Virus record (IMG/VR): IMGVR_UViG_3300011008_000028
Reading direction: 5' to 3' (one strand)
DNA from: a virus
Lineage: Duplodnaviria; Caudoviricetes
DNA length: 64,000 nt
In this document: one piece after another, positions 1 to 49,900 of the stretch
Layout: the number at the start of each line of letters is the position of its first letter
Numbering within the stretch: position 1 is the first letter of the stretch
Position numbers and translations under genes: made by a program
Notes under the pieces: model-generated
What the model saw: only the letters and a program-made list of their open reading frames with translations
What the model was told of the DNA's origin: nothing
Database searches by the model: none

Positions 1-110
1 ATCACGGTGCTAAGGATGGTGCATTCGGTTGCTCCCTGAATGATACTGTGTCTCGTTCCTACTGGACTTGTGGCGCCCGCCTCTCCCTGAAACCGACCGG
101 TGTAGTATAG
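1..110 (+). CDS. 3' end of a DGR-type target gene (C-type-lectin-fold variable region), truncated by the window edge
   Basis: Frame 3 reads HGAKDGAFGCSLNDTVSRSYWTCGARLSLKPTGVV*, resembling the GAF..N..S..W..G.R C-terminus of DGR target proteins. Two other copies in the window differ only at codon positions 1-2 of NNY codons. A 30-bp palindrome follows. Confidence 0.75.
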   Translation, partial: HGAKDGAFGCSLNDTVSRSYWTCGARLSLKPTGVV

Positions 111-4178: not shown

Positions 4179-7100
4179 TTATGCGAACTGGAACCAGATC
4201 TCACCGGTTGTGCAACCAACAGGTTTATCTGCAGAAATGGTGATGTTTCTAACAGCTTTCTGATCAATTGCAGCCGACTTGACTGTGGTACTTGTAGGAA
4301 GAACGATTGCATCTTCAAGCTTCTCAGATGTAACTGCCTTATTTCTGATCTTAATTGTTGTAACAGAATCGATTGCCAGCTTATTGCCTGTAATGGACAG
4401 GTCGGCCAGCTTCCTCGATGTAATCGATCCATCAAAGATGTGGGATTCGGTGATCATCGGTTCAAGCTTCAGCTTATTTGCTCCTATGGAGTGATCTGCA
4501 ATCTTGATTCCGGTGATGGAGTAGTCGGCAAGTACACGATTGTCAACGGAAAGATCATCAAGCATGCTGTTGTTAACAGTGAGCCATTCAGGCTGACCAT
4601 TCTCATTGTATACACCCAGTACTCGGTTTGCCATCGATACAGGGCCAAAGAGATCGGCTGTGATTGAACCAGGATCGATCATATCATGAGTGATCTTGGT
4701 CCATTCTGGATCCGTGTTGGCTTCAGTTACAGCAAGAATCATATTATCGAATCTAGATGTAAACAGTTGCTGACCGGTAACTGCACGATCATCGATGTAC
4801 TCTGTGATTACAGCCTTAATTCCAAGCTCGGCTGTTTCGGGAACGAATCTGAAGTCGGAGAAATCATACTTCTCCACCGTCTTCGGTGTTACGGTTCCTC
4901 TTACAAGAGATTCAATTCTGCTGATATCAATAGGAGCATATTCCCTGTCTTTGATCAGAAAATGACCAGAGCCGTTTGTTATACGAACACCTGCATCATA
5001 CATATCAAGGAATGTAGTTGCATCGAACCGTTCGATCAGATTTCCATATGCATCCTGAAGATCAGGTCTCTTTTCCGGTGTAGCCGTACCATTGATCAGC
5101 TTCACAGCGATGGTATCTGAGATTGCCATGATATAACGATACAGATGTTCATTATCTTCTTCGACATTGACTCCATATGTTACTTCGATAGGAGACGACT
5201 CAATAGGATCTGCTTCTCCTCTTACAATTGCTCGGATACGTTCTATCGAAATAGGTGTGAAATACTTATCGCCTATCATAGTACCTGCTGTTTCAATTGC
5301 ATCAGGCATATCTACTTTAGGATCGAACTCAGTAAAGAGTTCAGTATCACCATAATCAGGATAGAAAGAGTATCTTGCAATATCTTCATCTGTTTCGGAA
5401 TCAGTGGACATAATCTCAACTGTACCATCAGATTTCAGATATACAGCAGGCTCTGCTTCCTCATCATCCATCTCGAATATCAATTCACCATTGATAAGTC
5501 TCGGAGTCACGGACGAAGTGGGATCTGCCCATCCCTCTTCTGCTTTACAGAATGCTTCAAGTCTGGATTCATCGATTCTAGATATTACAAGTCCGTCAAG
5601 TTCAATATCCGTTGGCATTGCTTCAGCAATTGCGCCATCATTCAGTATACTCGATATCACCGCTGTATCAATAGGAAGAATGTAAGATCTATCTTCATTA
5701 TTTCCGTTATTGCAGCAGCAACAGCCAGAACCCGACTGATACGAGTCTTCGTCCAGATTAATGAGAAGAGGATCTTTCTCATCCGGAAGTGTATAAGTTC
5801 CTCTTATGAGGGATTCGATATGCTGAATCGGAATTGCTTGTAGTGTATGGCCGCCGTATGTAACCGTTCCCGTTCCTTCGTATGTCGCCGTATTGTTTAC
5901 GATTGCATCCAGGTGGCTGTGTGCAATAGCACCCAACTCATTCCCATTGAATGTGACCGTTCTGGTTGTGTTCAGCGGTACTGTTCCTTCAATTATATCC
6001 GCAATACGATTATCAGGGATATCATCGATATACAACTCTCCAGGATGTTCAGTAAGCTCAAGAGGATCAATCTCCTCAAGACATTTAACTTTCTCCTTGA
6101 GAGAATCATTATATTCATCAATTGCTTCAGCAACATGTGTCTTTACCCACTGAACGTCAGGTATCAGATTTCCGTTACCATTCAGATCAGAAGCGATCTT
6201 GGGAGGACGTACTTCAATCGAAGGTGTTCCAAGAAGCTCAACAGAACGATCAATTTTGTCTGATGTAACAGAACCATTTTCAATCATTCCTTCCGTAACC
6301 TGAGTGAACTTCGGTGTACCATTTGCTTCTGTAACACCAATCACTCTATCCGCTACAGGAGATGTTGTGAGCTTATCAAGGGTAATATAATGGGTAGGGA
6401 TATCTGTCCATAGGGTAGTGATGTTCCCAGCTTCAATAAGCATCTGTCTTACAGTGTTACGTACCCACGCTGTATCAGCAATGGTATGATCATCGGAACC
6501 TTCTGTAGGATGTTCGGTTATTGTCGGGCTTCCATACAGAGTCAAATTCTCTGCAAGCTTTCTGGATGTGAAAGTGTGATCTGCAAAGAATTCTTCTGTG
6601 AGCTTAATGTAGTCGGGATCAGATCCAGGTCTGATAGCACCGAGTACTACATGATCATCTGTAGGTATCCACATCTTACCAGGGGTGATAAGATGATCTC
6701 GAAGCATTTCAGTTTCGATCTGTACCCAGCCAATGGTGTCATCGTCTTTACCGATACCAATCACAACGGATTTGGTATTGGGCTTGAATAGTTTGTCAGG
6801 CGTTACTGATTCCGATGCAAGCTTGTCATCCGTAACGGCACCATTTCGGATATTCTCAGTATCAACAGAATTCAACTGAAGATGTTTCTGAGCTATCGAC
6901 ATAGGAAGAAGATTGGTTGTATCAAATGTGATTTCACCAATCATATCCGATGTTATCTTGGTCCATACTGGTGCTGTATTGGGAGTTGTTACGGCAAGCA
7001 CCATATTTGGATCTGGTGATGTAAACATCTTATCACCTGTAACAACTCTATTCCCGAGCATCTCTGTGGAAATTTTCGACCATGTTGGTGCGTAATTTCC

Positions 7101-9434
7101 TTCACTGTATGTGAGTACAGTGTGAGATTCATCCGGGTTCTTCATCTTTGTCGGAGATATAGAATGATCAGCAATTACGGACTCAACGATTGCTCCAGCA
7201 GCTATCATTGCTGCTGTAATCTTTCTATAAATAGGATGACCTTTATCAGGACCAACAGCTAGTACAGAATTGGCCATATCAGACTCGAAGATATTCTCCG
7301 ACTTAACTTCGGATATACCAATCTTTTGTCCGGTAACTGCTCTATCGCCCAATTTAGAAGTTACAACTGAGCCATTTGCAAGTTCATCTGATGTAATAGC
7401 AGATGCAGCAATTGCCGCTGTGTTTACAGCTTCCGGCTTAATCATATCAGATGTAAGCTGTACCCATTCAGGGTCGCCATTCGTCTGAGTAACTGCAAGA
7501 ATACGATTCTTAACATTGGATGAGAAGAGATGCCTGCCTACTACAGATCTATCGGGGAGATCATCGATAGTGTGATGTGCTAGAGCATATCTAACCCAGT
7601 CTGCATCAACAACTTCATTTCCTGTAGCAGCATATTCAGGAGTATTCTCAAGAGTAGGTGTACCGGGGAAAGATGTGTCATCTGCAAATTCTCTACCTGT
7701 AAGAGTTCCAGATTTAACACTTCTACTTTCAATAGTATCCGAAGCAATCTTATGCCCAGTAATTGTATTATCGGCGATCTTATCTCCGATTACTGCACCA
7801 TTGGCAATCTTGTCCGTGGTTACTGCAAGATCGGATATCATATCCGTAACGATCTTTGTCCATTCTGCATCGCCATTTGCCGTCTTTACAGCCAATACAG
7901 CATTCGCAATTGGAGATGTAAAGATATTACGGCCAGTGATTGTATGGGTATCAATCTTACCTCCAGTAATCGTACCATTGGCAATCTTATCAACCGTAAC
8001 AACACCTGTGCCAAGGTTCATAGTCGTAATCGTAAGATCTGCAATCTTATCACCAGTAAGTGTCTTATTGGCAAGAGCAGAACCGGCAACTCCACCGTCA
8101 CGAATCTCATTGCTGGTAATTGACTTAGGCAGAATTTCAGCCTTGATAGCATTGGCTTCTGTTATGGTAACCTTGATATGGGTTCCATTATATCCCAGAA
8201 ACTGTCCAAGTACTTCACGAAGATCTATGGATGTTTGATTACCATTCAACTCCTGAATTATCAGAGCATGATTAGTATTATCTGGGATGATCTCATCGAT
8301 AAGACCATCAGTTACTATAGTAACTCCTATGGTGGAAGTATCATTGTATGTGATATCAAGTCTACCATTGGACTGTGTATACTGGATATCTGTAACATAT
8401 TTCAGATCTCCAACCAGACCGGTGATGGAGCCTATCAACTCATTCAGTTGATCAATTGCAGCCTGAGTAGATCTGGATATTGGTTTGTCAATATCGGCTG
8501 TGTTATCCACATTGCCCAATCCAACCTGGGACTTGGTTACACCGTGTGGGTTATTGTTGTTATTGAGATGATTTTCATACTCCGTAATATCAACGGCACC
8601 TATTTGTGCAGGTGTAACGTTGTGAGGATTATTAGTATCATTGATATGAGAATATACTCTAGAGGCAAGAGGAGAATCATCCAATTCATCCCAGATATGG
8701 TCAATTCGATCGACCAATTCATTATGAGCCATGGTAATACCTGCCTGGCTCACAAGACCTTCTCCATCGGTCCCCAGTTCATCATATATAGTAGGTCTTC
8801 CGACAATACGATTCCACAGAACCCTGAATACAGATGTATCTGTATCTTCACTGCTGACGGTCAGCTCATCGTCTTCGATGGTAAAGAAGAACTTGGTTAA
8901 TGCCAGATCAAATGCAGTCTCATTGGAATCTACGATCAGATACCCGTTATCATCAATGAAAAGATTGGGATAGAAGTCTTCATCTCCGGAATACTCTATG
9001 ATCAATTCTCCATCCTCATTGACATAGATATTGAATAGATCATTTGTGTATCCATCATTCGGAATAATACCATATGAACGAAGTAATGCACCTACAGCCC
9101 TCTCAGTAGGAATCTTGTAATCAGATTGCTCTCCACCATCATATGGAATATGAGTACTGATTTCGATACTACCAATTGCCCCGGCGATTCCTCCATATGT
9201 AATCAGGTTATTTGCAGGCTTGGCCGGGATGATATTCTGTTTCCCTTCGAAACGTTCATCAATCTCTTCAAATGCCTGTGTCAATGTCTGACTATGCTCA
9301 TCATTCATATCCTTTCTTACGGCATTGAATACTGTGATCGGATATGTATACTTATAATTCAAACTCGGAGGAGGTGATGGATTAGGGTCAATCCAAACCC
9401 GAGACTGAATTATTTCACTTCCAAGATATGCCAT
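4179..9434 (-). CDS. Large repetitive tail-fibre-like virion protein (1751 aa)
   Basis: NNPHxVT/VGLGNVDNTAD fibre motifs, many TxDKIAxxAV decamers and about 10 copies of a ~31-aa LFTS..N.VLAV....P.W..IT.DMI repeat. The N-terminus is paralogous to the ORF at 63051. Confidence 0.75.
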   Translation of the reverse strand: MAYLGSEIIQSRVWIDPNPSPPPSLNYKYTYPITVFNAVRKDMNDEHSQTLTQAFEEIDERFEGKQNIIPAKPANNLITYGGIAGAIGSIEISTHIPYDGGEQSDYKIPTERAVGALLRSYGIIPNDGYTNDLFNIYVNEDGELIIEYSGDEDFYPNLFIDDNGYLIVDSNETAFDLALTKFFFTIEDDELTVSSEDTDTSVFRVLWNRIVGRPTIYDELGTDGEGLVSQAGITMAHNELVDRIDHIWDELDDSPLASRVYSHINDTNNPHNVTPAQIGAVDITEYENHLNNNNNPHGVTKSQVGLGNVDNTADIDKPISRSTQAAIDQLNELIGSITGLVGDLKYVTDIQYTQSNGRLDITYNDTSTIGVTIVTDGLIDEIIPDNTNHALIIQELNGNQTSIDLREVLGQFLGYNGTHIKVTITEANAIKAEILPKSITSNEIRDGGVAGSALANKTLTGDKIADLTITTMNLGTGVVTVDKIANGTITGGKIDTHTITGRNIFTSPIANAVLAVKTANGDAEWTKIVTDMISDLAVTTDKIANGAVIGDKIADNTITGHKIASDTIESRSVKSGTLTGREFADDTSFPGTPTLENTPEYAATGNEVVDADWVRYALAHHTIDDLPDRSVVGRHLFSSNVKNRILAVTQTNGDPEWVQLTSDMIKPEAVNTAAIAASAITSDELANGSVVTSKLGDRAVTGQKIGISEVKSENIFESDMANSVLAVGPDKGHPIYRKITAAMIAAGAIVESVIADHSISPTKMKNPDESHTVLTYSEGNYAPTWSKISTEMLGNRVVTGDKMFTSPDPNMVLAVTTPNTAPVWTKITSDMIGEITFDTTNLLPMSIAQKHLQLNSVDTENIRNGAVTDDKLASESVTPDKLFKPNTKSVVIGIGKDDDTIGWVQIETEMLRDHLITPGKMWIPTDDHVVLGAIRPGSDPDYIKLTEEFFADHTFTSRKLAENLTLYGSPTITEHPTEGSDDHTIADTAWVRNTVRQMLIEAGNITTLWTDIPTHYITLDKLTTSPVADRVIGVTEANGTPKFTQVTEGMIENGSVTSDKIDRSVELLGTPSIEVRPPKIASDLNGNGNLIPDVQWVKTHVAEAIDEYNDSLKEKVKCLEEIDPLELTEHPGELYIDDIPDNRIADIIEGTVPLNTTRTVTFNGNELGAIAHSHLDAIVNNTATYEGTGTVTYGGHTLQAIPIQHIESLIRGTYTLPDEKDPLLINLDEDSYQSGSGCCCCNNGNNEDRSYILPIDTAVISSILNDGAIAEAMPTDIELDGLVISRIDESRLEAFCKAEEGWADPTSSVTPRLINGELIFEMDDEEAEPAVYLKSDGTVEIMSTDSETDEDIARYSFYPDYGDTELFTEFDPKVDMPDAIETAGTMIGDKYFTPISIERIRAIVRGEADPIESSPIEVTYGVNVEEDNEHLYRYIMAISDTIAVKLINGTATPEKRPDLQDAYGNLIERFDATTFLDMYDAGVRITNGSGHFLIKDREYAPIDISRIESLVRGTVTPKTVEKYDFSDFRFVPETAELGIKAVITEYIDDRAVTGQQLFTSRFDNMILAVTEANTDPEWTKITHDMIDPGSITADLFGPVSMANRVLGVYNENGQPEWLTVNNSMLDDLSVDNRVLADYSITGIKIADHSIGANKLKLEPMITESHIFDGSITSRKLADLSITGNKLAIDSVTTIKIRNKAVTSEKLEDAIVLPTSTTVKSAAIDQKAVRNITISADKPVGCTTGEIWFQFA

Positions 9435-22872: not shown

Positions 22873-23952
22873 TTATGCGTTCTGAGCAAAACCGTCCCAG
22901 TTCTCCTGAACAGTTCTGCCAGGCTGACCAGCCAGCTTGCCATCGGTCATAGACTTCAGGCCAATTGTTCTGGTAATCGGATCGTTCGTAGTAGTAAATA
23001 CAGGAACGTTTCCGATATTTGTACCTGTAGCAGAATCCACCGGCACAGAACCAAGGGATCTTGCAAACAGCTGATCCGAACCCTGACCATATACAGCATC
23101 GCCAAGCTCGGGGTTGAAGTTCAAGCTGTTAGAAACGATACGGTACTGCTTGAGCAGATCGTTCGCTATAGCATTGATAATCGCACTCTGATATACAACG
23201 CAGTTGAACTGGATATCATATGTTACGTTATCATGCTGGCCACCGGCATCCATATTGAGGGCATTGCCGGAGTTGATGTTAGTGGGATAACAGTCGGAGA
23301 GAAGAAGAGCACGCTCTACCTGAGCACCGGATCTGTCATGAAGTATATATATGAATTCACATGTATGCATTGCTTCATTGAACGCGATACCGTTGTCAGA
23401 CTCGCCGCTTCTTGCGAAGAGACGCTTCTCTATACCCTGCTGGTCCTTACCACCACCGATCCAACCACCGTAGTGAGCAAGACCGGAGTTCGGGTCACCT
23501 ATTGCACGCATCCAGTCGGAAACGACTGTATGAACGAGCGAACCATTCATTTCGAATACGGAGATCGTGATCGATTCTGTGGTATCCTTCATAATGGTAG
23601 GTGTATTGAACTGACGACCAGCGAAACCACCCTGAATCGGAGTAGCAGCATTCTGGAGCTGAGTATCCCCGAAGCCTGTAACCGAACGGTTCATATATTC
23701 AAGCATGTGCTTGAACTGGGTGAAGAGAGACTGGCTGTTATACAGGTCATCGCCGCCTGCGAACATCTTTGCGATTACGTGAGGGACTCTGACCATGAAC
23801 AGACGACCGAACTGGTTCATCTGAGGACTATAGTTCATTAACGCATGATGAGTCGCGTTAACACCACCGACAAACTGGGAATACTTGGTAAAGTCAGGAG
23901 CATACACCTGACGAGCACCAGTTTGAGATGTAATTACACTAGCAAGTGCCAT
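22873..23952 (-). CDS. Putative tail tube protein
   Basis: Directly downstream of the sheath; beta-rich, with ITISVFE...W and YPTNI...YDIQF patterns typical of tube proteins. Confidence 0.65.
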   Translation of the reverse strand: MALASVITSQTGARQVYAPDFTKYSQFVGGVNATHHALMNYSPQMNQFGRLFMVRVPHVIAKMFAGGDDLYNSQSLFTQFKHMLEYMNRSVTGFGDTQLQNAATPIQGGFAGRQFNTPTIMKDTTESITISVFEMNGSLVHTVVSDWMRAIGDPNSGLAHYGGWIGGGKDQQGIEKRLFARSGESDNGIAFNEAMHTCEFIYILHDRSGAQVERALLLSDCYPTNINSGNALNMDAGGQHDNVTYDIQFNCVVYQSAIINAIANDLLKQYRIVSNSLNFNPELGDAVYGQGSDQLFARSLGSVPVDSATGTNIGNVPVFTTTNDPITRTIGLKSMTDGKLAGQPGRTVQENWDGFAQNA

Positions 23953-29557: not shown

Positions 29558-30598
29558 ATGTTGAAATCAATTTTATTCACTCATGATGATATGGACGGAT
29601 GTGGATGCAGAGTCGTCTATGAGATTGCCCACCTGTACGAAGAAAAGGGCAAAGACTATGACGTCCTGAACTGTTCCAACAACAGTCTGGATGAAGACGT
29701 ATTAAAGGAGCTTAATTCCGGAAGAATTAGTCCTGAAACAACAATTGTCTTCTTTGCAGACCTGTGTGGAAGACCAGAGACATTGGAACTGCTGAAGTCT
29801 AAATCATATGATGTCAGAGTGTTTGATCATCATAACACAAATCTTCATGCATTAGAAACATATCCAAACGCAGTCGTAATGGAACGGAATGAGGCCGGCA
29901 AGAAGGTATCCGGCACTTCCTTATTATTCCAGTACTTCAATGCATATGCACTGGAACATCCGGAATGGGAAGGATCCAAATATTTCAACGACAGTACGGC
30001 AATTAACATGAACCTCTTCGGCACATTCGTTGATACGGTAAGATCTTACGACACATATGAATGGAAGGAAACGGGGAACGTCAGGGCCAAGGAACTTCAG
30101 ACCCTGTTCTTCATGCTGGGTATTGAAGCCTTCTGCGAGCAGTACGTGAAGCTGATACAGGATAAGGATGAAACGAAACTCATTTCCGATCATGATATGA
30201 TCTTCGTCCGGAACAAGATCAACCTGGAGCAGGCAATCATTGACAGATTCACAGTCAATGATGTAATCCCGATACAGTTATTGGGAGATAAAGATCAGAA
30301 AATGCATGACGGATGTATGGTAATCTCCACTAAGGGAGCAACGATGTCTGAACTTGGCTATCAATTCCTGGAGAAACATCCTGAGTTCGAATTCATTGTT
30401 GGCTTCAATCTCACATACCCCGGGCATGAGGTTTCCTTCAGATCAAGAACAGGACTTGTTGATACCGGGGTTGAATTTGCGGCTCGTATTGGTGGAGGTG
30501 GACATCCTGAAGCATCCGGTGCACCTCTCCCCAAGTCGGCACTTAATGATCTCATCAACATATTCATGAATACTCTCATCGGGTACTACTCACTCTGA
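29558..30598 (+). CDS. DHH/DHHA1 family phosphoesterase
   Basis: THDDMDG, FAD, FDHH, SFRS and GGGHPEASG motifs; ATG at 29558 after GGAGG. Confidence 0.9.
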   Translation: MLKSILFTHDDMDGCGCRVVYEIAHLYEEKGKDYDVLNCSNNSLDEDVLKELNSGRISPETTIVFFADLCGRPETLELLKSKSYDVRVFDHHNTNLHALETYPNAVVMERNEAGKKVSGTSLLFQYFNAYALEHPEWEGSKYFNDSTAINMNLFGTFVDTVRSYDTYEWKETGNVRAKELQTLFFMLGIEAFCEQYVKLIQDKDETKLISDHDMIFVRNKINLEQAIIDRFTVNDVIPIQLLGDKDQKMHDGCMVISTKGATMSELGYQFLEKHPEFEFIVGFNLTYPGHEVSFRSRTGLVDTGVEFAARIGGGGHPEASGAPLPKSALNDLINIFMNTLIGYYSL

Positions 30599-30611
30599 TC
30601 CTAAAGACAAC

Positions 30612-30645
30612 AAAAGAAAAGGCGGATACGTCCGCCTTTTCTTTT
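30612..30645. terminator. Bidirectional intrinsic terminator
   Basis: AAAAGAAAAGGCGGA-TACG-TCCGCCTTTTCTTTT after the DHH gene. Confidence 0.8.
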
Positions 30646-30671
30646 CATTGGTCCTATCATTCTCCCTTCCG

Positions 30672-30778
30672 CGGTCGGTTTCAGGGAGAGGCGGGCGCCA
30701 ATATGCCAGTAGGAATGAGACACAGTACTATCCAGGTCGCAACGGAACCACACCGTATCCCGCCCGCCGATTTTTATA
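30672..30778 (-). repeat. Orphan DGR VR-like cassette (copy 2, internally deleted) with 32-nt leader
   Basis: 76 nt match VR positions 24-99 with 11 mismatches, all at codon positions 1-2. Bases 30747-30778 are identical to 41701-41732. Confidence 0.85.
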
Positions 30779-30834
30779 TGACTTAAAATATTAGATAGAC
30801 GACCATCCGGGCATGCCCGGATGGTCGATGTTTA

Positions 30835-33800
30835 CTACCCTTCATATCCATGCGGATATTTTATATCGATTAGAGGCCTCTCATTCGGACGAATTATCTT
30901 TACCTTCATGATATTGTCATAACACTGAAGAAGTTGAGTCCGTAGCGATTGCAGATACGGAAGAGAATGTGGTACGACGTACTTTTTACTTCCGACTTCC
31001 AGAAGTTCGATATACCATTCCACAATCTCCAGTTTCGACAGACAGTACGATGCGATCATCATCTTATCATTCGCATCCCGTATGGAATCTGTCTCGATGG
31101 AAATATACGCCACCAGATCTCTCGGAATCTTCTTGAGCTTCTTCACACCGAACTTCTCATATATTATTTTCAGATCATGAGAAGCCTCATCCATCGCATG
31201 GATATCAACGTTCTCCGATTCAAACTGATGTCTGTACTGCTCCAGCTGGAGTCTGTATCCACCATTATACCATGTCTTGAGCGCTTCTGCTACATTTGCT
31301 ATACTGGAAGCATTCTCTGTTATATCACATGATTCTCTGAGGTGATATACAACCTCCTGCAAATCAGAGATTATCTTCTGCTTTTCTTTTTCCGGAGCAG
31401 CATACTTGGTGTAGATATTCCGGATGAAGGTGTTGATAATCGCAATATCCTCCTTGGAAATGTTGAATACAGATGTGGTACTCATCTCAACATTATCAAA
31501 TGAGAATAACATCTGGAGAGGAACGGAAACAATTCCAGACAGCTTGGTTGTACTGATGAGTCTCTTCATCTCCGTAGGAAGTCTCATGACTTCTCCCATT
31601 ATCTTCTCCGAGTATTTCACAACTCCTACATCATAGTACTTCACGGCTGCTCTGAAAAAGTTATATGCATCATCTCTATTCTGGATGCTTTTGAAAGTAT
31701 CTGCAGACATTCTGATTCTGATATCAGGCGATCTGTGCAAGAACCCGGTTAGAGATTCTCGACCGGAAGCGAATCGGGATATGAAATCCATGGTCATTGG
31801 GGGAATTTTGAACTCGAATATGGATCCCTTTGCTTTGGGGTCGATCGTGATCTGAAGTTTCCGGTAGCCTTTCACCCATGACCCGAGCAGGTTCTTCGAA
31901 ATGATATTCGAGAAGATGTCAGCTGTATACTGATTCACCTTCTTATCTTTATCATTTATGATGGACTGGGTTACAGTCCCAAGTGTTCTCTTGGCCGCAG
32001 CAGGGCTAAGATCTGTATTGTATTCAGTGTTATCCGATTCATATATCGGGTCAAATATCACAACAGGTGTTGTTGATTCCATTTCAACGCCCTCCTTTAT
32101 TAAAGAATTTGAGATAATAGACTGAACAAATCTAGTGCGTTCACGAGTTCTTTTATCGGGAATAATGTTCGTTTCATTCATAGTAAGGATTGTATCGTAC
32201 ATATCTTCTGCTTCTGCAAGACCTTCAAACTCCGGGTTGTCATATAACACATTAAATCCTTCTGATATATACCATGCCAGAACAGTTGGAAACATATCCG
32301 CGGGAGTATAATGTGTATTTCCTGATCCATTCTCTATATATGATAGAGATTTTGCTTCTCGATAGATATCCATAATATCGAATGCACAATCATCATCAAT
32401 CAATACACATTCTTTGATTTTCGATGGTTTGTATCGGTTTACAATGTCATTTTTGTAATGTGATGCCCATGCACCCATATTCATATCATCAGAAGTTTTA
32501 TTGGAATCAATCTTTCCTCTGACTGAATTCTGGAGTCGGTATGCTTTCATCAGCTCTCGATCCCATATCAACTGGGTTGTTTTGTACTTATCCTCCCCAC
32601 CAAGTTGGTTTTTGGTATATGTTTCGATCTGCACTTCAGGAATAGACTTTACACTAGCCTTGAATCTGTTGATAAAAGCTGGGGAAGATACCATATCCAT
32701 GAATGATACTTCTTGACCCAATGATTTAGATACATTATCTATAGTCCTGGAAACAATTCCAGACATAACCCCAACCATTCTTACAGATTGTAAGGATTGT
32801 CCGTCTCTTGTAGTAATTCCGTGCACTTTGAGAGCATGTGTCCGGAAGTCAATATGCCCCCATTGTTTGATCTTCTCTTTCAGCTTTTCAATGCCAGACT
32901 TTGATTTGTTATCAAATTCTGCATTTGTTACAGGTGTTTTCCTTACAACTCCTGCAAGTTCAGCTGCAGTACGCTTGATATTGTCGTCTGACACAGCGTT
33001 GATTTGTTCCGGATCCAGTTCAAATTGTACTGCAACTTGCTTCCCTGTATTAATATCAAACCCAATACGGTAGCAATATTTCAGATCATTCTTTGGTCGT
33101 GGTGTATGTGCTTCGTTGATATTCATCCATGATGCTAGTTTGTTTGCATATTCAGTATCTAATTTCAGCTGGTATGTTTCTCCGATTGCCAATGTCTTAC
33201 ATACCATTTCTCTACGCACGGCTTCACTTATCACATTAGCATCTTTGAAACTAATTTCTCCATTGATGGATGTAAGCTCTATGAATCCTAAAACATCTTC
33301 ACCGTTCTTACGAATTGTTACCAGACCTGTATCTGGATTCACCGTGTTCAGACATTCGGTAAGAGCAATGATTGAGGTCTGTAACCCATATGGGAGTTCA
33401 TCAATCCCTGCATATGTATACTCAAGGGATTCATACACCTTTTCGGGACGTTTGATTTTGGTATTCTTTCCTTCGAACTTTTCCCATATCTGTTTGGCAA
33501 CCTTCGACTTGGTCCAGATATCAAATCCTTCGAAGTTCTCTCCATGTTCCGACTCACATGTCAGTGTCACATCATACTTGCGTCTGATCTTTGTCCGTAG
33601 TGCAACATGTGTGTTACGGATGAAGCCGTGAAACATTTCTTCATCTTCGGTATTGCGGTTGTTTACAGGATGTCCTGTTACCTGTATCATGCAGCGATAA
33701 CGTTTCCCCTTCTTATACACCCGGACAGAACCACACAGGGTCCCATCCTTGGGCTCCACTAGGAATTCATCCAGTAACGTTTTCACACGAGGAACATTCC

Positions 33801-33933
33801 GAATATCATCATAGAATGATCTCTTCATTTCGGAATTACATGCATCAACGATCATCTTATGAACTCCCATTATCTTAATCTGGATATCTTCTGGAAGATC
33901 CCCAAGATATCCATCTCTGATTTCTTCAGCCAT
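30835..33933 (-). CDS. Large putative internal head/virion protein (1032 aa)
   Basis: Lies next to the major capsid gene, has many hydrophobic-x-E-[A/S] motifs, and shares a ~200-aa module with 46918..50574. Confidence 0.7.
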   Translation of the reverse strand: MAEEIRDGYLGDLPEDIQIKIMGVHKMIVDACNSEMKRSFYDDIRNVPRVKTLLDEFLVEPKDGTLCGSVRVYKKGKRYRCMIQVTGHPVNNRNTEDEEMFHGFIRNTHVALRTKIRRKYDVTLTCESEHGENFEGFDIWTKSKVAKQIWEKFEGKNTKIKRPEKVYESLEYTYAGIDELPYGLQTSIIALTECLNTVNPDTGLVTIRKNGEDVLGFIELTSINGEISFKDANVISEAVRREMVCKTLAIGETYQLKLDTEYANKLASWMNINEAHTPRPKNDLKYCYRIGFDINTGKQVAVQFELDPEQINAVSDDNIKRTAAELAGVVRKTPVTNAEFDNKSKSGIEKLKEKIKQWGHIDFRTHALKVHGITTRDGQSLQSVRMVGVMSGIVSRTIDNVSKSLGQEVSFMDMVSSPAFINRFKASVKSIPEVQIETYTKNQLGGEDKYKTTQLIWDRELMKAYRLQNSVRGKIDSNKTSDDMNMGAWASHYKNDIVNRYKPSKIKECVLIDDDCAFDIMDIYREAKSLSYIENGSGNTHYTPADMFPTVLAWYISEGFNVLYDNPEFEGLAEAEDMYDTILTMNETNIIPDKRTRERTRFVQSIISNSLIKEGVEMESTTPVVIFDPIYESDNTEYNTDLSPAAAKRTLGTVTQSIINDKDKKVNQYTADIFSNIISKNLLGSWVKGYRKLQITIDPKAKGSIFEFKIPPMTMDFISRFASGRESLTGFLHRSPDIRIRMSADTFKSIQNRDDAYNFFRAAVKYYDVGVVKYSEKIMGEVMRLPTEMKRLISTTKLSGIVSVPLQMLFSFDNVEMSTTSVFNISKEDIAIINTFIRNIYTKYAAPEKEKQKIISDLQEVVYHLRESCDITENASSIANVAEALKTWYNGGYRLQLEQYRHQFESENVDIHAMDEASHDLKIIYEKFGVKKLKKIPRDLVAYISIETDSIRDANDKMMIASYCLSKLEIVEWYIELLEVGSKKYVVPHSLPYLQSLRTQLLQCYDNIMKVKIIRPNERPLIDIKYPHGYEG

Positions 33934-34063
33934 TGTATCATCTCCTAATGTAAGGTCAAATTATAAAGTCGTTGACAATGAATGGAAATAGTACCGGGGA
34001 TTTCTCCCCGGTACTATTTCATTTTACATAGTATGGAAGTCTCACTATGACTAGTTGGTGAAC

Positions 34064-35959
34064 TTATCCGCCGATGGAGCTAACCGGAACAGTTGCTGTC
34101 GACCAAGGAGCACCAGAACGCTTTGTCGGGGCCTTAGAGTAAACAAGCTCACTGTTAAGCATAACAAGATCCGCACCGATGAACTGAATCGAGATATCCT
34201 GGAATCTCGATGTAGCAGTGATGATGTTGAATGCACCAGCCGGAGCAAGAGGAGACTGATATGCAGTCTGGCTCTGCGATGTGAAGAGGTGAGATGTATA
34301 CTTGAGGTGCTTGTTGCTCATGTGCTCCGGATCAGTCGGATATGCATATACATGGAGTACAAGCTCACGCTTCGTAACTTCATCACCTGCTCTGTTGGTG
34401 TAGGTTATAGGCGCTTCAGTGTAAGCATCGTAGAGGTTGGAAGCAACGATACGTACGTTAGCACCGATACCTGTAGCGAAGCCGTAGGAGCTATTAACTG
34501 TAACGCCGGATACAGCTGTACCAGGAGTGGTCTTCCAGTTAACGAACTCTTCGATCATAGCAGTAGCCATCGGGTTACCTACGATTATGAAGCTCAGACC
34601 TTCAAGCTTGGTATCTTCAGAAAGCTGGCTTATCATAGCCTTGAGCTTGAACTGAACAGCGCTTGCCATGAACTTGAACGGATCACCGGCATACCCATTA
34701 GGAGCCTGGAGATCAGCGAAGTATGTCTTAGCAACGGATTCGAGATCCAGCGGGTCTGTTATAACGCCATTGTACTTCTTGAATTCGTCGTTAAGGAACT
34801 GGATAACCTTCTGGTTCTCGAGCATCTCCTGAACCTTAACTACTTCATCAACCATGCGGTTGTAGTAGTTAATATCAAGCAGAGCAGCAGCGTCTTCGAT
34901 CTCTTCGATCGTGAAAGGCATCTGCATACGAGCGCCGTCTTCGATGTTGAATCTGAGGACACGTCTCTTCTCGCGTACGCTTATCGATCTGAGGTTCTTC
35001 TCGTTGGAGAGATAGCCTTCGAATACGAGGCCTTCAACCTGACCAGTTGTGCTTGCAGCACTTACTGTACCATTCTGGTAGTCAACCTGACCGAGGATTG
35101 TATCCTTGATCTCGGTGCCATTGTGAACGAAGTTCAGCTTGCCGTTCAGGAAGAGACCGCCTGTAGCGAAGTCGATTGTGATACCATTGTCACGGAGCAT
35201 GATTGTTTCGCCGTCAACAACGATACCCTTTATCTTGAACGCCCAAGAGAGCGTATCAACGCCGGGTGTGCCGGTTGTAAGATTGCTTATGATATCATAG
35301 TTGGTGAGTCTGCCGTTCTCGAACATAACAGCCTTCTCTTCAATTGCGAGACCCTTAGCAGCATCCCACATCTCCTGCCATTCGCCGGTGAACATGCAGC
35401 GAGGATACTCAACTTCCTTGGTAGGATCGTTGTTATCAACGATGAATGTTGTACGAACGTGCTTGGAGATCGAAGGTGTCTTAACAACCTCAACTTCGAT
35501 AATATCCTTGATTATGGAGTGAATGTACTGCTTAACGAGTACAGGGAACTCCAGCGTGGATATAGGAAGGTATGCCGTTACAGAAGCAGCTTCGTTAAAC
35601 GCCTTAACCTGGATATCCCAGATCTGGTCGAGCTGGTTAGCAGTAGCCATGATATGAGGATCAACAGTACCCGTCTGAGTGTTCTCAGCCATTACTTCGA
35701 GTTCCTTCTTTATCGGGGAGAGGAGATCCTCCTTATACTGCTCCATGAATGCAGGGTCGCGCATCTTCTCGTGATCCTTCTTAATATCTACCTGCTGTGT
35801 ATCTCTGTACTGTTCCGCAAGAGCATCAAATGCTTCATCAAATGTACGGAGTTCGGTACCGGTGGATACAAGACCGCCAAAAGAGCTCTTCGTAGGGACC
35901 AATGTCGCTGCAGTGTTAGCGTCAGCGGCCTCATAGAACCAGCTATCTTTTCTTGCCAT
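34064..35959 (-). CDS. Major capsid protein precursor
   Basis: 631 aa with strongly biased codon usage. An N-terminal propeptide ends around FNEAA. Size and position fit jumbo-phage capsid proteins. Confidence 0.7.
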   Translation of the reverse strand: MARKDSWFYEAADANTAATLVPTKSSFGGLVSTGTELRTFDEAFDALAEQYRDTQQVDIKKDHEKMRDPAFMEQYKEDLLSPIKKELEVMAENTQTGTVDPHIMATANQLDQIWDIQVKAFNEAASVTAYLPISTLEFPVLVKQYIHSIIKDIIEVEVVKTPSISKHVRTTFIVDNNDPTKEVEYPRCMFTGEWQEMWDAAKGLAIEEKAVMFENGRLTNYDIISNLTTGTPGVDTLSWAFKIKGIVVDGETIMLRDNGITIDFATGGLFLNGKLNFVHNGTEIKDTILGQVDYQNGTVSAASTTGQVEGLVFEGYLSNEKNLRSISVREKRRVLRFNIEDGARMQMPFTIEEIEDAAALLDINYYNRMVDEVVKVQEMLENQKVIQFLNDEFKKYNGVITDPLDLESVAKTYFADLQAPNGYAGDPFKFMASAVQFKLKAMISQLSEDTKLEGLSFIIVGNPMATAMIEEFVNWKTTPGTAVSGVTVNSSYGFATGIGANVRIVASNLYDAYTEAPITYTNRAGDEVTKRELVLHVYAYPTDPEHMSNKHLKYTSHLFTSQSQTAYQSPLAPAGAFNIITATSRFQDISIQFIGADLVMLNSELVYSKAPTKRSGAPWSTATVPVSSIGG

Positions 35960-36027
35960 GTTTCATCAATTCCTTTCTGTTATGAGTTAATAAAAAATTT
36001 GGTGTGCGGATTTTACAGATATGTTTC

Positions 36028-36636
36028 TTACTCCTTTATCCCATTGCGGATAATGTTGTCGAAACTGTCATTGAGCAACTTGAGTAAATTCACAGCCTTA
36101 TTGAAGAATAACAGATTCCGAGAGTAGTTCTCATCAGCAAATGTATTCTTCAAATAGTTGCGTAAATTCTCCTCAAGAGTTGCTAATGATTTGACAATTC
36201 CGGCCACATCCGCAGAAATAGTGTATAATATGTCGGAATTGTTTTTGATACTTGTCTGCTGTGAAGCAATCTGGTTTAATAACGACAAGAATCGTTTGTA
36301 CAACGTTTGATTCATGATTGCACTAACTTTCTCATCTAAACCAGCTGGAGCCGAACTGCCTTCAGGCTCATCTCCTGTATCATCCATGTCCCCAGTATCG
36401 AAATCATCTGCCATGTCAGGCGGATTATCATCGACCGGCGGATCAGCACTGAAATCACCAGCATTATCTTCCCCAGGTGACCCCTCAATCGCTGGAGGAT
36501 CCTCTGCAGGTGCATCAGGCGGATTATCATTTGATGCGTCCATGTTGGCATCCGGAGCTTCCTCATCTTCAGGAGCTTCGATTAAGTATCTCTCAAATAA
36601 GGATAATTCCTGTTGATTACTCATATTGTCGGTCAC
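36028..36636 (-). CDS. Hypothetical acidic protein (possible scaffold)
   Basis: D/E/P-rich disordered N-half and helical C-half; directly upstream of the capsid gene. Confidence 0.65.
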   Translation of the reverse strand: MTDNMSNQQELSLFERYLIEAPEDEEAPDANMDASNDNPPDAPAEDPPAIEGSPGEDNAGDFSADPPVDDNPPDMADDFDTGDMDDTGDEPEGSSAPAGLDEKVSAIMNQTLYKRFLSLLNQIASQQTSIKNNSDILYTISADVAGIVKSLATLEENLRNYLKNTFADENYSRNLLFFNKAVNLLKLLNDSFDNIIRNGIKE

Positions 36637-36648
36637 TCCTTGAGTGTA

Positions 36649-38679
36649 TTATATCATATTAACAACATTTTTGTTTCCGGCAACTCTCCAAAGTTTCTTT
36701 TTGAGCTCCGTTTGAAAACGCATTAATTGATATTTTGCTTGATAATCATTTTTCTGTTCAGCATCTTTGATCTTTTCTTTGATGATTTCCTCTTCTTGCT
36801 GAAGTTCGAGGATCATCTCATTCTTTAGTCTCTGCTCCTTCTTAGAGTTTTTATTATGACTAAGAATTCTGATTCCAAGCAAGAATGGATTCAATAAAAG
36901 ACCAGCTTTGAATAATGCCCCATCTCTAATAGATGTATGGAGAGCTTTGATCAGATTCATTCGCTCTTTAGGTTCCGCAAGGCGTTCTTTGATCTTCGTC
37001 TCTTTAGTGTCATTCCAGCTGGTAATCATATTGTCAACCCATTGTTTAGTACGTTTAGCTGGTTTCACAGCAGCACGGCCAACATTGACGACATTTTGAA
37101 CACCCTTCTTGGCATGCTGCTGAACTTTAGTAAACTTTCGATCAATATCCATCAAAACATCTTTGATAGGATGATCAGACTCGGGTTTATCTTTATCTGC
37201 TGAACCAACCCGATCTTCTTCATCATCACTCCATAAATCATCTTTAGCCGCCTCACCTACCGGCTTAGCGGCTTCATTAAAAACCTCTGGTATACCCAAA
37301 TCCAATTCCCATGGTTGTTTCATGGATTCTGTGTTGATCGAATCATCGTTTTCGTTGTTATCATCCTTAATAACAACCTTTGGTTTTGGCATTCCGTCAT
37401 TATGAGAATTTACATGTTTATCAGAAGAATGATCATCAGTTTGATTGAATGAATGATCATTCTTATTGAGAGAATTCTGATAAGTATAATAGTAGTAGTT
37501 TACCGGGCCAGATGACGTTTGATTGGATCTAGGAGGATGTTCCTCATCACTAATGTCATCAGTAATTGATGTGTCACTTGGTGTGGAAGCCGGTTTATCA
37601 TCTTCATCCGGATGTTTGTAATCATCCAGATCTTTATCACTTTCCGGTTTGTCTTCCTTTGGTTCTTCTTCACCCCAAGAAGTGATGTCATGATTTCTCT
37701 TTAAATATGGAGCTACAGTTGAATGCTTCTTATCAGAAGTTTGTGCCATCCAGGCAGGAGCTTCTGTCTTAGGTTGTGGGAGCATTTCTGCAATATCAGC
37801 ATCTGATTCTGTATTAATCTGATTTATTTCTTCACACAATTCAGTCAATACTTTTGAAATGTGATCAGTATCCATACGGATTTCATCTGACCACGTCAGA
37901 TAGTACTCGTAGAATGAAATCAGATCATGAAGAGCATCAATCTGTTTCTGTGTGTATTCATACACGGCGTCTTCATTTCCCATGATCATCGCCTCACGGA
38001 AAACTTTCTGGTGTTCTTTATGCATATTGGATACGATCATAAATGCACATTCATTCATGAATATCTCGCCGGTTCCAGTTCTTCTCAGTCCGATAATGAA
38101 TTGATTAGCCAGAGGAGTGAGATTCATATGGGACCCAATGTATGTTTCCAAATGAGGAACTGCCATATTTGGGCTGTATGGTTGGCGACTCACTCGTAAA
38201 GCAGTTATGTATGCATCTGGGATGGCACACTCGCCGAACTTCTGGAGCATACCTGATGCAAGATATCGATTCTGCTTTCCTTTTGTCATTCCGTAATAAG
38301 TATTGATGTAAGGACGAACATCATCAGGTCTGTAATACTCAAACATCATGAATCCCTTGATGTTATCTTGGCGGAATTCTTCCAGGAACTTCTTTGCTTC
38401 TTCATATGAATGAGTATCCACTTTGGCGTCTTTGGCCTTCTCCAGGCTGGTGGTTACACATTCATACACGGTATCATATGCAGCAATTGGAAGTCCCCAA
38501 TATTCGATAAATGGGATCAACGTGTTTATGCCAGTCGAAGATTGAATGATATATTCTAACTGGGCGACATAATCACGAGGAGATTCAAGTGCTTGTTTAA
38601 CTGCTTCAAGATAAGCAGAAACATCGCTTTCTGAACCGCTATTTTTCGCGGCCAGAAATAGAGATTTTATATCAATCAT
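36649..38679 (-). CDS. Hypothetical putative head protein
   Basis: The likely start is ATG 38679 (MIDIKS) after AGAGG. Acidic central region and coiled-coil C-terminus. Confidence 0.7.
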   Translation of the reverse strand: MIDIKSLFLAAKNSGSESDVSAYLEAVKQALESPRDYVAQLEYIIQSSTGINTLIPFIEYWGLPIAAYDTVYECVTTSLEKAKDAKVDTHSYEEAKKFLEEFRQDNIKGFMMFEYYRPDDVRPYINTYYGMTKGKQNRYLASGMLQKFGECAIPDAYITALRVSRQPYSPNMAVPHLETYIGSHMNLTPLANQFIIGLRRTGTGEIFMNECAFMIVSNMHKEHQKVFREAMIMGNEDAVYEYTQKQIDALHDLISFYEYYLTWSDEIRMDTDHISKVLTELCEEINQINTESDADIAEMLPQPKTEAPAWMAQTSDKKHSTVAPYLKRNHDITSWGEEEPKEDKPESDKDLDDYKHPDEDDKPASTPSDTSITDDISDEEHPPRSNQTSSGPVNYYYYTYQNSLNKNDHSFNQTDDHSSDKHVNSHNDGMPKPKVVIKDDNNENDDSINTESMKQPWELDLGIPEVFNEAAKPVGEAAKDDLWSDDEEDRVGSADKDKPESDHPIKDVLMDIDRKFTKVQQHAKKGVQNVVNVGRAAVKPAKRTKQWVDNMITSWNDTKETKIKERLAEPKERMNLIKALHTSIRDGALFKAGLLLNPFLLGIRILSHNKNSKKEQRLKNEMILELQQEEEIIKEKIKDAEQKNDYQAKYQLMRFQTELKKKLWRVAGNKNVVNMI

Positions 38680-38743
38680 ATTATTCAACCTCTCTTCTAA
38701 ATTTGTCGAATTTAATAAATGGTGAGAAAGGAGCCGTATTTCA

Positions 38744-46917: not shown

Positions 46918-49900
46918 TTGATATTTATGAAGATAGATAATTCTCGAAATGGAGCCATTATGAGTGGCAAGTGGTCCAAACCAGGATCAGGCTTTTATAA
47001 TGCATTGATAAAAGAAAACAATGCACTTGAGTTGATTGAAGAAGCATATCTGATACATGGAAAGATCGCTACCAAGTGGCATCCCACTCCACTCTCTAGA
47101 TCCGGGTGCAAATATCCTCATCATGCAATCAAGAATGGTAAGCTGGTTGTGTCGGCACCTGGTGTGAAGGCTGCATATGCCAGAGCTAAACAGATGGGCA
47201 TATATAAAGGTGATATTAAACGTCATCTTGATTATCATTTGAAAGAGCTGGGTCTGATGGATAAGAACGGTGTTCATTATGAAGAAGCCATGGAAGAAGG
47301 ATTCCGTTTCGTCGAATCTACCATAGATGGTGTATTGGGAACCCATCTTGTTGAAGAGGAAGACAAGCTGAATGGCATCAAGATTCCATTCACCGAGGCA
47401 GTGAACCTGGCGGATCCCACTGGCGAGAAGCAGCAGGAATGGTTAAAGAATCATCCTGCTGAACAACATGATCTTTCTGAATATATCGATGAATCAATCG
47501 AAGATATTGAGAATTGGATGAGTAATATAGTAACTGAAGGGTGGAATGCTGTAAATGAGTTCGATGATAAACACAGCCCTGCTGCATTCGAGAAGATATT
47601 CGAATCAACTGGATCTGAAACTCTACTTCCTAGTATACATACTCCATCCCAGTTATTATCATATATGAGCAATATCAACTATGGATGGATTAGTAAGAAT
47701 GGTGAAATGTATAAAGATGCAGATGATGGAGACTTCTTCAAAGATTACACATTACAGTCACCATTTGAACTTATCAAATCCAGGTATGGAGTATGCTGGG
47801 ATCAAGTTGAATTTGAACGTCAATGGTTTATTGATAATGACTATAACTTTCGGACGTACTTCCTAGTCATTGATGATAACGAGAATAAACCCTCCCACAC
47901 ATTCTTGATATATCAGGAGAATAACAAGGTGTACTGGTTTGAGAATGCATGGTATGATCAACGTGGTATCCATGTATTCAATTTATTGTCTGAAGCAATG
48001 CGTGAAATCATCGATAAATTTAACAAATTCAATCATAATAAAACTAACGATGTATATCTTTATAATCTCCCGAAGATGCCGACTGGAACCAGCTGTGAAG
48101 AATTCTACCGAATCGGAACCGATTCTAAGAATCTACTGAAGCATATTCAGATGTCGGAAGTGATCAAGGAAGCATGTGAAGATAGTGATATCGAGAAAAA
48201 GTGGTTTATCATATCTGATGATGGAGTTGATAACTGCTGCATCAAAGTCAAAGGGTATGATAAACCAATGAGGGGAAGATCATCCATGATTACTCTCAAA
48301 CTTGACTCAGATGAGGATAAGTGGTATGTGCTCTGTAAGAAGAATACAGACGACTATGGTGTACCCGGCGGCGGCTGGAATAAGGGAGAAACACCTGAAC
48401 ATGCTGCTGTTAGAGAGCTTCATGAAGAAACTCTTTCCAAAGTCAAAAACGTAAAGAGAATGGGTACCCTCATTGAATATCATGATACTGTAAAAGACTG
48501 GGTCAAGGAACATGTTCCAAACAATGATGAATGGTGGTATGGATACTACTCGGCCGTATTCGTAGGAATATATGACGGAGAGTTCAGAGGCAAAGTCAAG
48601 GCCGAAGATCGGGAATCCGGTTATATATGGAAGAAGGTGGATTCTAAACTCATGAAAGAATTTCCCAAAGAATATCAGGATGCAATCAATGATTATATCA
48701 ACAAAGAGCATCCATTCAAAGAATCAGTGTTTAATGAAAAATCTCACGGTGAATTGAAGTATTGCTATCGAGTTGGATTTGATATTAAAACCGGCGAAGA
48801 AGTATGTGTTCAATTCGAAATTCCTAAGGATGATAAAGAGTTTGTACAGGATGTGGGCGATCCGAAACTTACTCGAAACACATATAATGATTTAACTGGT
48901 CATGATATACCTGATCATCTATTGAAGAAGATTCATACTAATGCAGTCGACTCTGTCCGGAAGACTTTCAAAAAGTTAGGTCATATCGATTTTGTCACGA
49001 AGCCAGCGAAGGTTATATCAATCTTTACCCGAGATCATCGATCTTTGAATCATGTTGCGATGATAGGATTATTTAGCCAGAGAGTCATTGATATTCTGAA
49101 TAATTTTGTGCGAGATCCTAATTATGGCAAAAAGATTATTGATGAATATCGTAAGAAGACAGGCGATCCTACATCTCAGCCTCCTTCTGCAGAGGTTCTT
49201 TGTTCCCCTTTGATGAAGGCATATATGAAACGGGAACTAGCGTTGAACGCTTCTGGGACCGAAGAATACACTGTTAACCAGCTTGGCGGCGACGGCAAAC
49301 ACAAGACCACGAAACTTATATGGGATAGAGATGTATTTATGTCTTATAAATACACGAATGCCTTTAGAGGTTTCATGGGAGATCGTTCGGCAGGTCGTGG
49401 AGAAAACTCCAAAGACAAGCTTGATATGTTTACCAATAATCTCAATAATAAATATCATAAAACACCTGAAGAGAAAAATGCTTATAAGAGTACTATAGAA
49501 AGTGCAGTATTCGAAGAGTTCCTCAAAGATGCATCTATGTCAGATGGTATTCTCGATCTCTGCTCTATTATGGAGAGCATGGTATCTATTGAAGGTATTC
49601 ACCTTGGTGGGATTGAAATCACTGCTAATAACCCGAGCAACCCACACCGATTCATTTATCGTGAATCGTATATAGCAGATCCCATAGATCTCGAGAAGAT
49701 GTTCTTCGAGACCGGAACCAACTTCCGGAATTTTCTGATCACAGAAAATTCTAATCTGTTCACAGAAGCTGAAAATGATCCTCCTCCTGTAGATGATACA
49801 GAACAGCAGAAACCTACTTCAGATGAAGAGCAGTCTGCTGAGGAGGATCTTTCCAATAAAGGAGATGAAGAAGATGGAATGGTTGATGGAACCAATACCG

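Follow-up and report, generated by a model that had tools for sequence, protein, structure and literature searches.

A DGR is defined by a VR that lies inside a protein-coding target, and surveys filter for this arrangement and search only near the reverse transcriptase (RT). The locus near 30.7 kb of a Caudoviricetes virus record (IMGVR_UViG_3300011008_000028; "the window" denotes the whole stretch of 64,000 nucleotides analysed) raises the question of what a VR-like sequence is doing outside any gene. An earlier note had described it as an orphan, independently diversified VR allele and proposed captured cDNA as its origin. Our own reading, to which we assign a probability of about 0.62, is that the locus (cassette B2; 30596-30778, minus strand) belongs to a dispersed family of DGR VR cassettes, as a non-coding copy shortened at its 5' side, and is a candidate recipient of cDNA made from the template repeat (TR).

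Anatomy of the cassette at 30.7 kb

Read along the minus strand, the locus and its 5' neighbours comprise the following features:

30832-30837, minus: stop codons TAG TAA of a 1032-aa open reading frame (ORF; 30835-33933, minus), just upstream of B2
30800-30827, no strand assigned: perfect 28-nt palindrome with a 12-bp stem and a GCATGC centre, directly 3' of these stops
30747-30778, minus: leader of 32 nt, beginning with a TATAAA box, identical to 41701-41732
30694-30747, minus: TR-homologous variable segment of 54 nt, corresponding to positions 37-90 of the 90-nt TR core
30672-30693, minus: invariant GC-rich 22-nt element (putatively IMH-like), found in six copies and not in the TR
30646-30671, minus: B-type tail of 26 nt, common to B2 and the sister-contig cassette B1
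30612-30645, minus: 15-bp hairpin from the hairpin scan, with A and T runs on its flanks (bidirectional terminator-like)
30596-30611, minus: last 16 nt of the B2 unit, conserved with B1

The quoted cassette sequence was checked against the window letters on the minus strand and reads as given. A 23-nt GC-rich core, for which zero chance occurrences are expected, is found exactly three times in the window (72-94, plus; 30677-30699 and 41567-41589, minus). As a third VR allele, B2 (30672-30747) differs from the copy at the window start by 11 mismatches, as had been reported, and by 11 from the copy at 41.6 kb (41562-41637; a 76-nt repeat with 86% identity), in both cases at codon positions 1-2 only. 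The direct fusion to a shared leader was also borne out, the 32 nt being 100% identical in the two copies, which lie 11 kb apart. The internal deletion relative to the 41.6-kb copy is real, while its size is 63 nt (41638-41700) and not about 64 nt; it is in-frame, has one T common to both sides of the junction and removes positions 1-36 of the TR core together with 27 nt of the leader. The tail at 30646-30671 is distinct from the one common to the other two window copies, and a scan found both structures between which B2 had been placed, the terminator-like hairpin and the palindrome.

Several internal pairings were noted. Within the leader, GGCGGGCG is an exact reverse complement to CGCCCGCC of the 3' element, and a small hairpin arises where AGGGAGA in the tail pairs with TCTCCCT in the 22-mer. 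The larger hairpin at 30612-30645 begins 55 nt past the start of GGCGCC, which places it in the range also seen for the hairpins of all sister copies. The palindrome is probably the hairpin of the 1032-aa ORF gene and thus a 5' neighbour of B2. Its core GGCATGCC does recur in the hairpin at 120-147, as the earlier note had it, but cassette specificity of this core was rejected since an unrelated G2 hairpin (G2:108210-108250, core at G2:108231) carries the same core, which points to a house style of phage hairpins. In this phage, gene ends repeatedly carry long perfect hairpins with GGCATGCC at their centre, whether or not a cassette is nearby.

B2 does not form the 3' end of a target gene, as an in-frame TAA lies upstream at 30832-30834. 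B2 is covered only by a 50-aa frame that starts with GTG and has no ribosome-binding site, AAGGAGG being the one used by real genes here; B2 therefore appears to make no protein product. Recoding of stop codons was considered and rejected, since translation table 11 gives a coding density of about 89-90% with long ORFs and in-frame stops that include TAA. At 30778-30840 (minus), the 1032-aa ORF ends in GGG TAG TAA, a strong hairpin comes next, and an in-frame GGG is found 24 codons on in the leader, followed by the VR. This likeness to the take-off and landing sites of translational bypassing is probably a coincidence, because the other cassettes have no co-oriented upstream gene. An assembly artefact was likewise rejected: independent assemblies place B2 and its sisters in the interior of long contigs, between unique flanks.

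Template repeat and reverse transcriptase on sister contigs

The window, which encodes a terminase, a major head protein and a DnaB-like helicase, contains neither a TR nor an RT. Searching IMG/VR with the core motif yielded three contigs of one phage:

G1: 71.5 kb
G2 (IMGVR_UViG_3300011008_000071): 118.7 kb, 99.99% identical to G1 over the longest common block
G3: 4.8 kb, carries the RT

On these sister contigs, a 547-aa ORF ends in a VR and represents the target gene, with the VR in the 3' end of a protein-coding gene; the consensus of this VR is identical in three samples. The TR (L001:4166-4256) lies 380 nt downstream of the 547-aa ORF and is followed by a 369-aa RT (RVT_1, E=1e-21) with a YMDD motif. 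DGR RTs usually show SQ at a motif that reads SH here. Two other large phages with related RTs, one of 120.8 kb from the same sample and one of 76 kb that is complete, have one TR and one VR each; near RT relatives with 58% identity, no recognisable TR or VR was found in the stretch read.

The window and G2 share no long nucleotide matches. However, their tetranucleotide correlation is 0.985, above that between the halves of either contig, and their GC contents are 42.1% and 41.3%, respectively. The last 77 nt of G2 equal positions 1-77 of the window. One sample yielded both a contig of the window type (L104) and the RT contig G3, two contigs that end at the same base, and both contig types are found in sample 3300010998. 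G2 lacks a capsid protein and a terminase and was rated 44% complete by CheckV; the contig of the window (168-178 kb according to the protein collection) and the 118.7 kb of G2 add up to about 287 kb, which fits this estimate. Thus, the window very probably follows G2 in one jumbo phage genome, a link that rests on the repeat overlap and not on a spanning read. Look-ups on both flanks of cassette D, which sits at this junction, gave only contigs that break inside D.

The contig ends near cassettes (window 1, the ends of L104, L005 and G2, and the start of G1) lie exactly 99 nt from the point at which two repeat copies diverge, so that they represent de Bruijn breaks at repeats and not biological ends. 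This 99-nt k-mer signature of the assembler makes contigs start inside VRs.

Searches for further relatives covered several collections. The region had no match in the phage GenBank collection, a metagenome scan for the 21-mer gave one chance match on an unrelated 1.6-kb contig, and IMG/VR scans with the B2 leader and the B2 tail gave no further relative. Exact-protein look-ups with the DHH protein (two starts), the 1032-aa ORF, the terminase and the cluster member P0112 returned nothing. Elsewhere in the window, a 1751-aa ORF (4179-9434, minus) contains several families of 30-68-nt internal repeats; its only match on G2 is 45% identical over 66 aa, and it likely encodes a fibre or another repetitive structural protein.

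Differences from the template fall almost entirely on adenines

We compared the alleles with the 90-nt TR core, which contains 27 A. The differences are distributed as follows:

B2: 9 at adenines, 0 elsewhere
C2: 9 at adenines, 0 elsewhere
C1: 17 at adenines, 0 elsewhere
B1: 15 at adenines, 2 elsewhere
Target gene (A = D): 13 at adenines, 1 elsewhere
Total of five independent alleles: 63 at adenines, 3 elsewhere (63/66)

Against an expectation of 30% at adenines, the exact binomial probability is about 1e-29. In B2, 9/16 template adenines are substituted and 9/9 differences fall on adenines, so the description of an orphan, independently diversified allele without a gene holds. The adenine bias in all alleles suggests that each was written by adenine-mutagenic reverse transcription of the TR.

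Retrohoming would leave differences from the TR at adenines only, while the outer flanks diverge in the ordinary way. Accordingly, the templated parts of B2, C1 and C2 show zero non-adenine changes, whereas the paralogous tails are 81% and 67% identical (19-33% diverged), with compensatory changes in the stems. Adenines outside the TR-homologous part are unchanged, which makes reverse transcription of whole cassettes by the DGR RT unlikely.

A dispersed family of VR cassettes

Besides the TR, direct reading of the contigs gave a family of seven VR-like copies:

A, G2 near 10.6 kb: real target gene
C1, G2 23.3 kb: orphan
B1, G2 71.6 kb: orphan
E, G2 92.2 kb: orphan, without the 22-mer
D, G2 end and window 1-99: probably orphan
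B2, window 30.7 kb: orphan
C2, window 41.6 kb: orphan

Two of these lie in the window beside B2:

41505-41760, minus: C2, with full-length leader and VR, 22-mer, its own tail and a 13-bp hairpin
1-147, plus: 3' part of D, with VR, 22-mer, tail and a 13-bp hairpin; the contig begins inside D

C2 lacks a start codon and is preceded by an in-frame TAA. It adjoins a 506-aa ORF (41850-43370, plus) with a PemK/MazF-like toxin domain (E=3e-7) and a weak D5-like primase/helicase signal, a combination that is an unusual fusion. Window positions 1-99 had served in the earlier note as the VR of the gene, a status for which we found no support: the probable upstream half of D on G2 contains an in-frame stop and offers only an ATG without a ribosome-binding site, so that D is probably an orphan as well. 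VR repeats that break assemblies at fixed k-mer distances can be mistaken for the VR of a target gene, as happened with D.

The copies share a common architecture. The 22-mer stands directly 3' of the TR homology in six copies, including the VR of the target gene, and ends in T instead of G in one of them. The hairpins of these six copies have stems of 12-15 bp and start 51-60 nt past the start of GGCGCC, and their sequences are all different. Leaders are 95-100% identical among copies, with leader types and tail types occurring in mixed combinations. A 9-nt 5' block and the 22-mer, both of which are not in the TR, are kept in every copy that retains those positions. Homing alone is insufficient to account for this pattern because the 22-mer and the leader are conserved though not templated by the TR.

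B1 and B2 agree in their tail, in the position of the hairpin and in the last 24 nt, with an overall identity of 81% and compensatory changes in the stem. Their similarity stops at the stop codon of the convergent gene, a DHH phosphoesterase next to B2 and an unrelated 205-aa ORF next to B1 on the sister contig; orthology of B1 and B2 was rejected on account of their unrelated neighbouring genes. Two pairs of copies carry identical alleles. D equals the target-gene VR (A) over 121 nt, including all 14 mutated positions, and this identity ends exactly at the limits of the common homology; B1 and E are identical over 74 nt. These two pairs indicate that alleles are also copied at the DNA level, that is, by gene conversion. 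Cassette E (G2 92180-92340, reached via L013) has the second leader type and the VR of B1, and ends three bases before the limit of TR homology. It looks like the sole cDNA-type or dead copy in the family.

B2 as a candidate recipient and the origin of its deletion

According to the reading we prefer, a phage of ~287 kb would have one TR and one RT, located on the preceding contig at a distance of about 40 kb upstream from B2. B2 would offer the machinery a target-like 3' anatomy consisting of TR homology, a recipient-only 22-nt element and a strong hairpin about 25-27 nt further on. By analogy with BPP-1, a non-coding locus with TR homology and IMH-like and hairpin signals should be hit, and B2 would be, or recently have been, a recipient of adenine-mutagenised TR cDNA (mutagenic retrohoming). 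Homing may still be occurring at B2, and loss of the 5' TR homology may have lowered or abolished its competence as a recipient. The identical target consensus VR in three samples and the two identical cassette pairs argue that homing is infrequent and is accompanied by copying at the DNA level. We consider the cassettes more likely to be tolerated by-products (pseudo-targets) than functional parts; a function of the cassettes is nevertheless possible, given that the 22-mer and the structure of the hairpin are conserved. If the cassettes are live recipients, the DGR machinery tolerates or exploits non-coding targets.

The 63-nt deletion is, in its simplest form, a faulty homing event: the cDNA would halt one base before a template adenine and be joined to the leader via one-base microhomology. 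Such an origin in reverse transcription seems preferable to replication slippage and makes the idea of an RT template jump, put forward in the earlier note, plausible. Sister copies have comparable lesions on their 5' sides; B1 in G2, for instance, lacks 21 nt and has a 2-nt filler at the junction. All three junctions that lie inside the TR homology (B2, and A and B1 in G2) are located one base 3' of a template adenine, for which the chance probability is about 3%; junctions next to adenines are what would be expected if the RT stalled and the product was then misjoined.

Two further deletions were observed among the sister contigs. In G1, 137 nt of C1 are missing at 48439/48440 compared with G2 23153-23289, between two GGCG repeats, which joins the TATAAA box to the 22-mer; the two genomes are 99.99% identical and come from different samples. 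The target gene in G2 shows a 33-nt in-frame deletion upstream of and into the VR that is not found in G1 (L001:3660-3692 vs L003:~975). Two other contigs end at its junction base, and the deletion may therefore be in part an assembly effect.

Alternative explanations

If the orphans were a silent archive, they would store VR alleles and exchange them with the target gene by gene conversion, the DGR writing and recombination shuffling and recalling. Identical alleles do not arise from independent mutagenic homing, and the identity of D to the target-gene VR over 121 nt up to the homology limits, like that of B1 to E over 74 nt, supports conversion, to which the mixed leader and tail types and the retention of the non-TR 22-mer and 9-nt 5' block can be added. 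However, B2 without its 5' homology arm would be a poor donor, a recombination-proficient phage should convert repeats of >100 nt in any case, even if no function is selected, and the two related large phages manage with one VR. We therefore regard the archive as unlikely. The same holds for a two-tier system, in our view an improbable arrangement, in which a single DGR would write alleles into gene-less cassettes as well as the receptor-binding gene and conversion would move the stored alleles. Quite unlikely is a small structured RNA, that is, a TATAAA-driven transcript of ~170 nt up to the terminator in which pairing of GGCGGGCG with CGCCCGCC would loop out the variable segment, so that the DGR would diversify an RNA. 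Predicted folds of B2 and C2 do close the leader on the 3' element (Z-scores of -3.97 and -2.08), and the second leader type also pairs with this element, with the register shifted. C2 and D are located in divergent or unoriented intergenic regions, so that an own promoter would be required, and TATAAAA is 3.6-fold enriched in intergenic DNA. A sigma-70 scan, however, gave no promoter for the cassettes, and Rfam gave no match over 30000-42500 at E up to 1, with two weak chance matches elsewhere. Furthermore, the terminator supplies much of the fold Z-score, independent leader types are too few for covariation, and the variation tracks positions 1-2 of AAY codons, as follows from a TR that specifies the scaffold of a protein and not an RNA.

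Two explanations would leave B2 outside the present activity of the DGR or turn it into a copy of the template. B2 could be what remains of the 3' end of a second target gene that has since decayed, a pseudogene now beyond the reach of the DGR. It is in fact in frame with the upstream 1032-aa ORF, after its TAG TAA, and the leaders translate to Gly-rich strings as found before VRs. We find a relic very unlikely, since at least five orphan copies sit in unrelated contexts, some of them opposite to both neighbouring genes, and the 1032-aa protein has no similarity to the target protein. Moreover, the TR-homologous part shows no non-adenine changes next to tails that are 19-33% diverged, and the leader matches that of a copy 11 kb away at 100% identity. 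Hardly credible, finally, is the model of the earlier note, according to which B2 is captured TR cDNA and its tail the template-side IMH*/spacer. The allele is adenine-mutagenised as this model demands, and E, which stops short of the TR homology limit and has no 22-mer, indicates that cDNA-like copies may exist. For the only TR found, however, the model is contradicted: the TR flank from L001:4257 onward matches the 3' side of B2 at just 7/48 positions in register, and the tail is common to the orphan B1 (81%). Allowing for changes at adenines, the best match of the tail between the target VR and the RT was 19/26, a value equalled or exceeded by 417/500 shuffled tails. B2 also carries the 22-nt element of the target VR (30672-30693), which has no counterpart in the TR and is incompatible with a simple TR cDNA; counterparts of the leader, 22-mer or tail were absent from the 400 nt upstream and 330 nt downstream of the TR.

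Comparison with known systems

For the DGR of the Bordetella phage, it has been described (PMC3240598) that the IMH together with a downstream hairpin is sufficient to target a heterologous gene, that the structure of the stem matters and its sequence does not, and that upstream sequence is dispensable. B2 resembles the BPP-1 mtd VR (Guo et al. 2011, PMC3240598) in being a near-repeat of the TR that differs only at template adenines, in having a recipient-only element at the 3' end of the homology followed by a hairpin with a conserved structure and a non-conserved sequence, and in that a DGR-type RT adjoins the TR in what is very probably the same genome. In contrast to mtd, B2 lies outside any gene as one of several dispersed gene-less copies and has a conserved, non-templated leader. 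The GC-rich stretch common to TR and VR is only 6 nt here, and the hairpin follows the recipient-only element at a distance of about 25 nt instead of adjoining it.

Remote or multiple DGR targets are known from Trichodesmium and other cyanobacteria, where they are protein-coding genes or paralogues, some of which keep only remnant TR-VR homology (PMC7517822, PMC8867640). As in those genomes, a single RT and TR would serve several dispersed VRs in our phage, whereas the extra copies here are intergenic units of 110-220 nt without a start codon or ribosome-binding site. Full-text literature searches found such remote and multiple protein-coding targets and remnant paralogue homology and no gene-less dispersed VR cassettes; in the literature searched, there was also no described genome in which most VR-like copies are intergenic and yet keep recipient signals.

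Retrocopies of non-LTR retroelements are typically 5'-truncated, with a constant 3' end and varying 5' junctions. The cassettes share the constant 3' end and the variable 5' junctions, including the 2-nt filler in one sister copy, but no target-site duplications were seen here.

If the cassettes exchange alleles with the expressed gene, a system regarded as purely random would gain a layer of memory, and if the two-tier reading were true, they would constitute a heritable archive of past specificities, comparable to a bank of pseudo-V genes coupled to a retroelement. In the pilS/pilE system of Neisseria and in the pseudo-V genes of chicken, partial copies of a variable segment, without a promoter or outside any gene, are found at scattered genomic sites. 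Our phage resembles these systems in that one copy is identical to the expressed allele, and it differs from them in that a retroelement, and not recombination alone, writes the variation.
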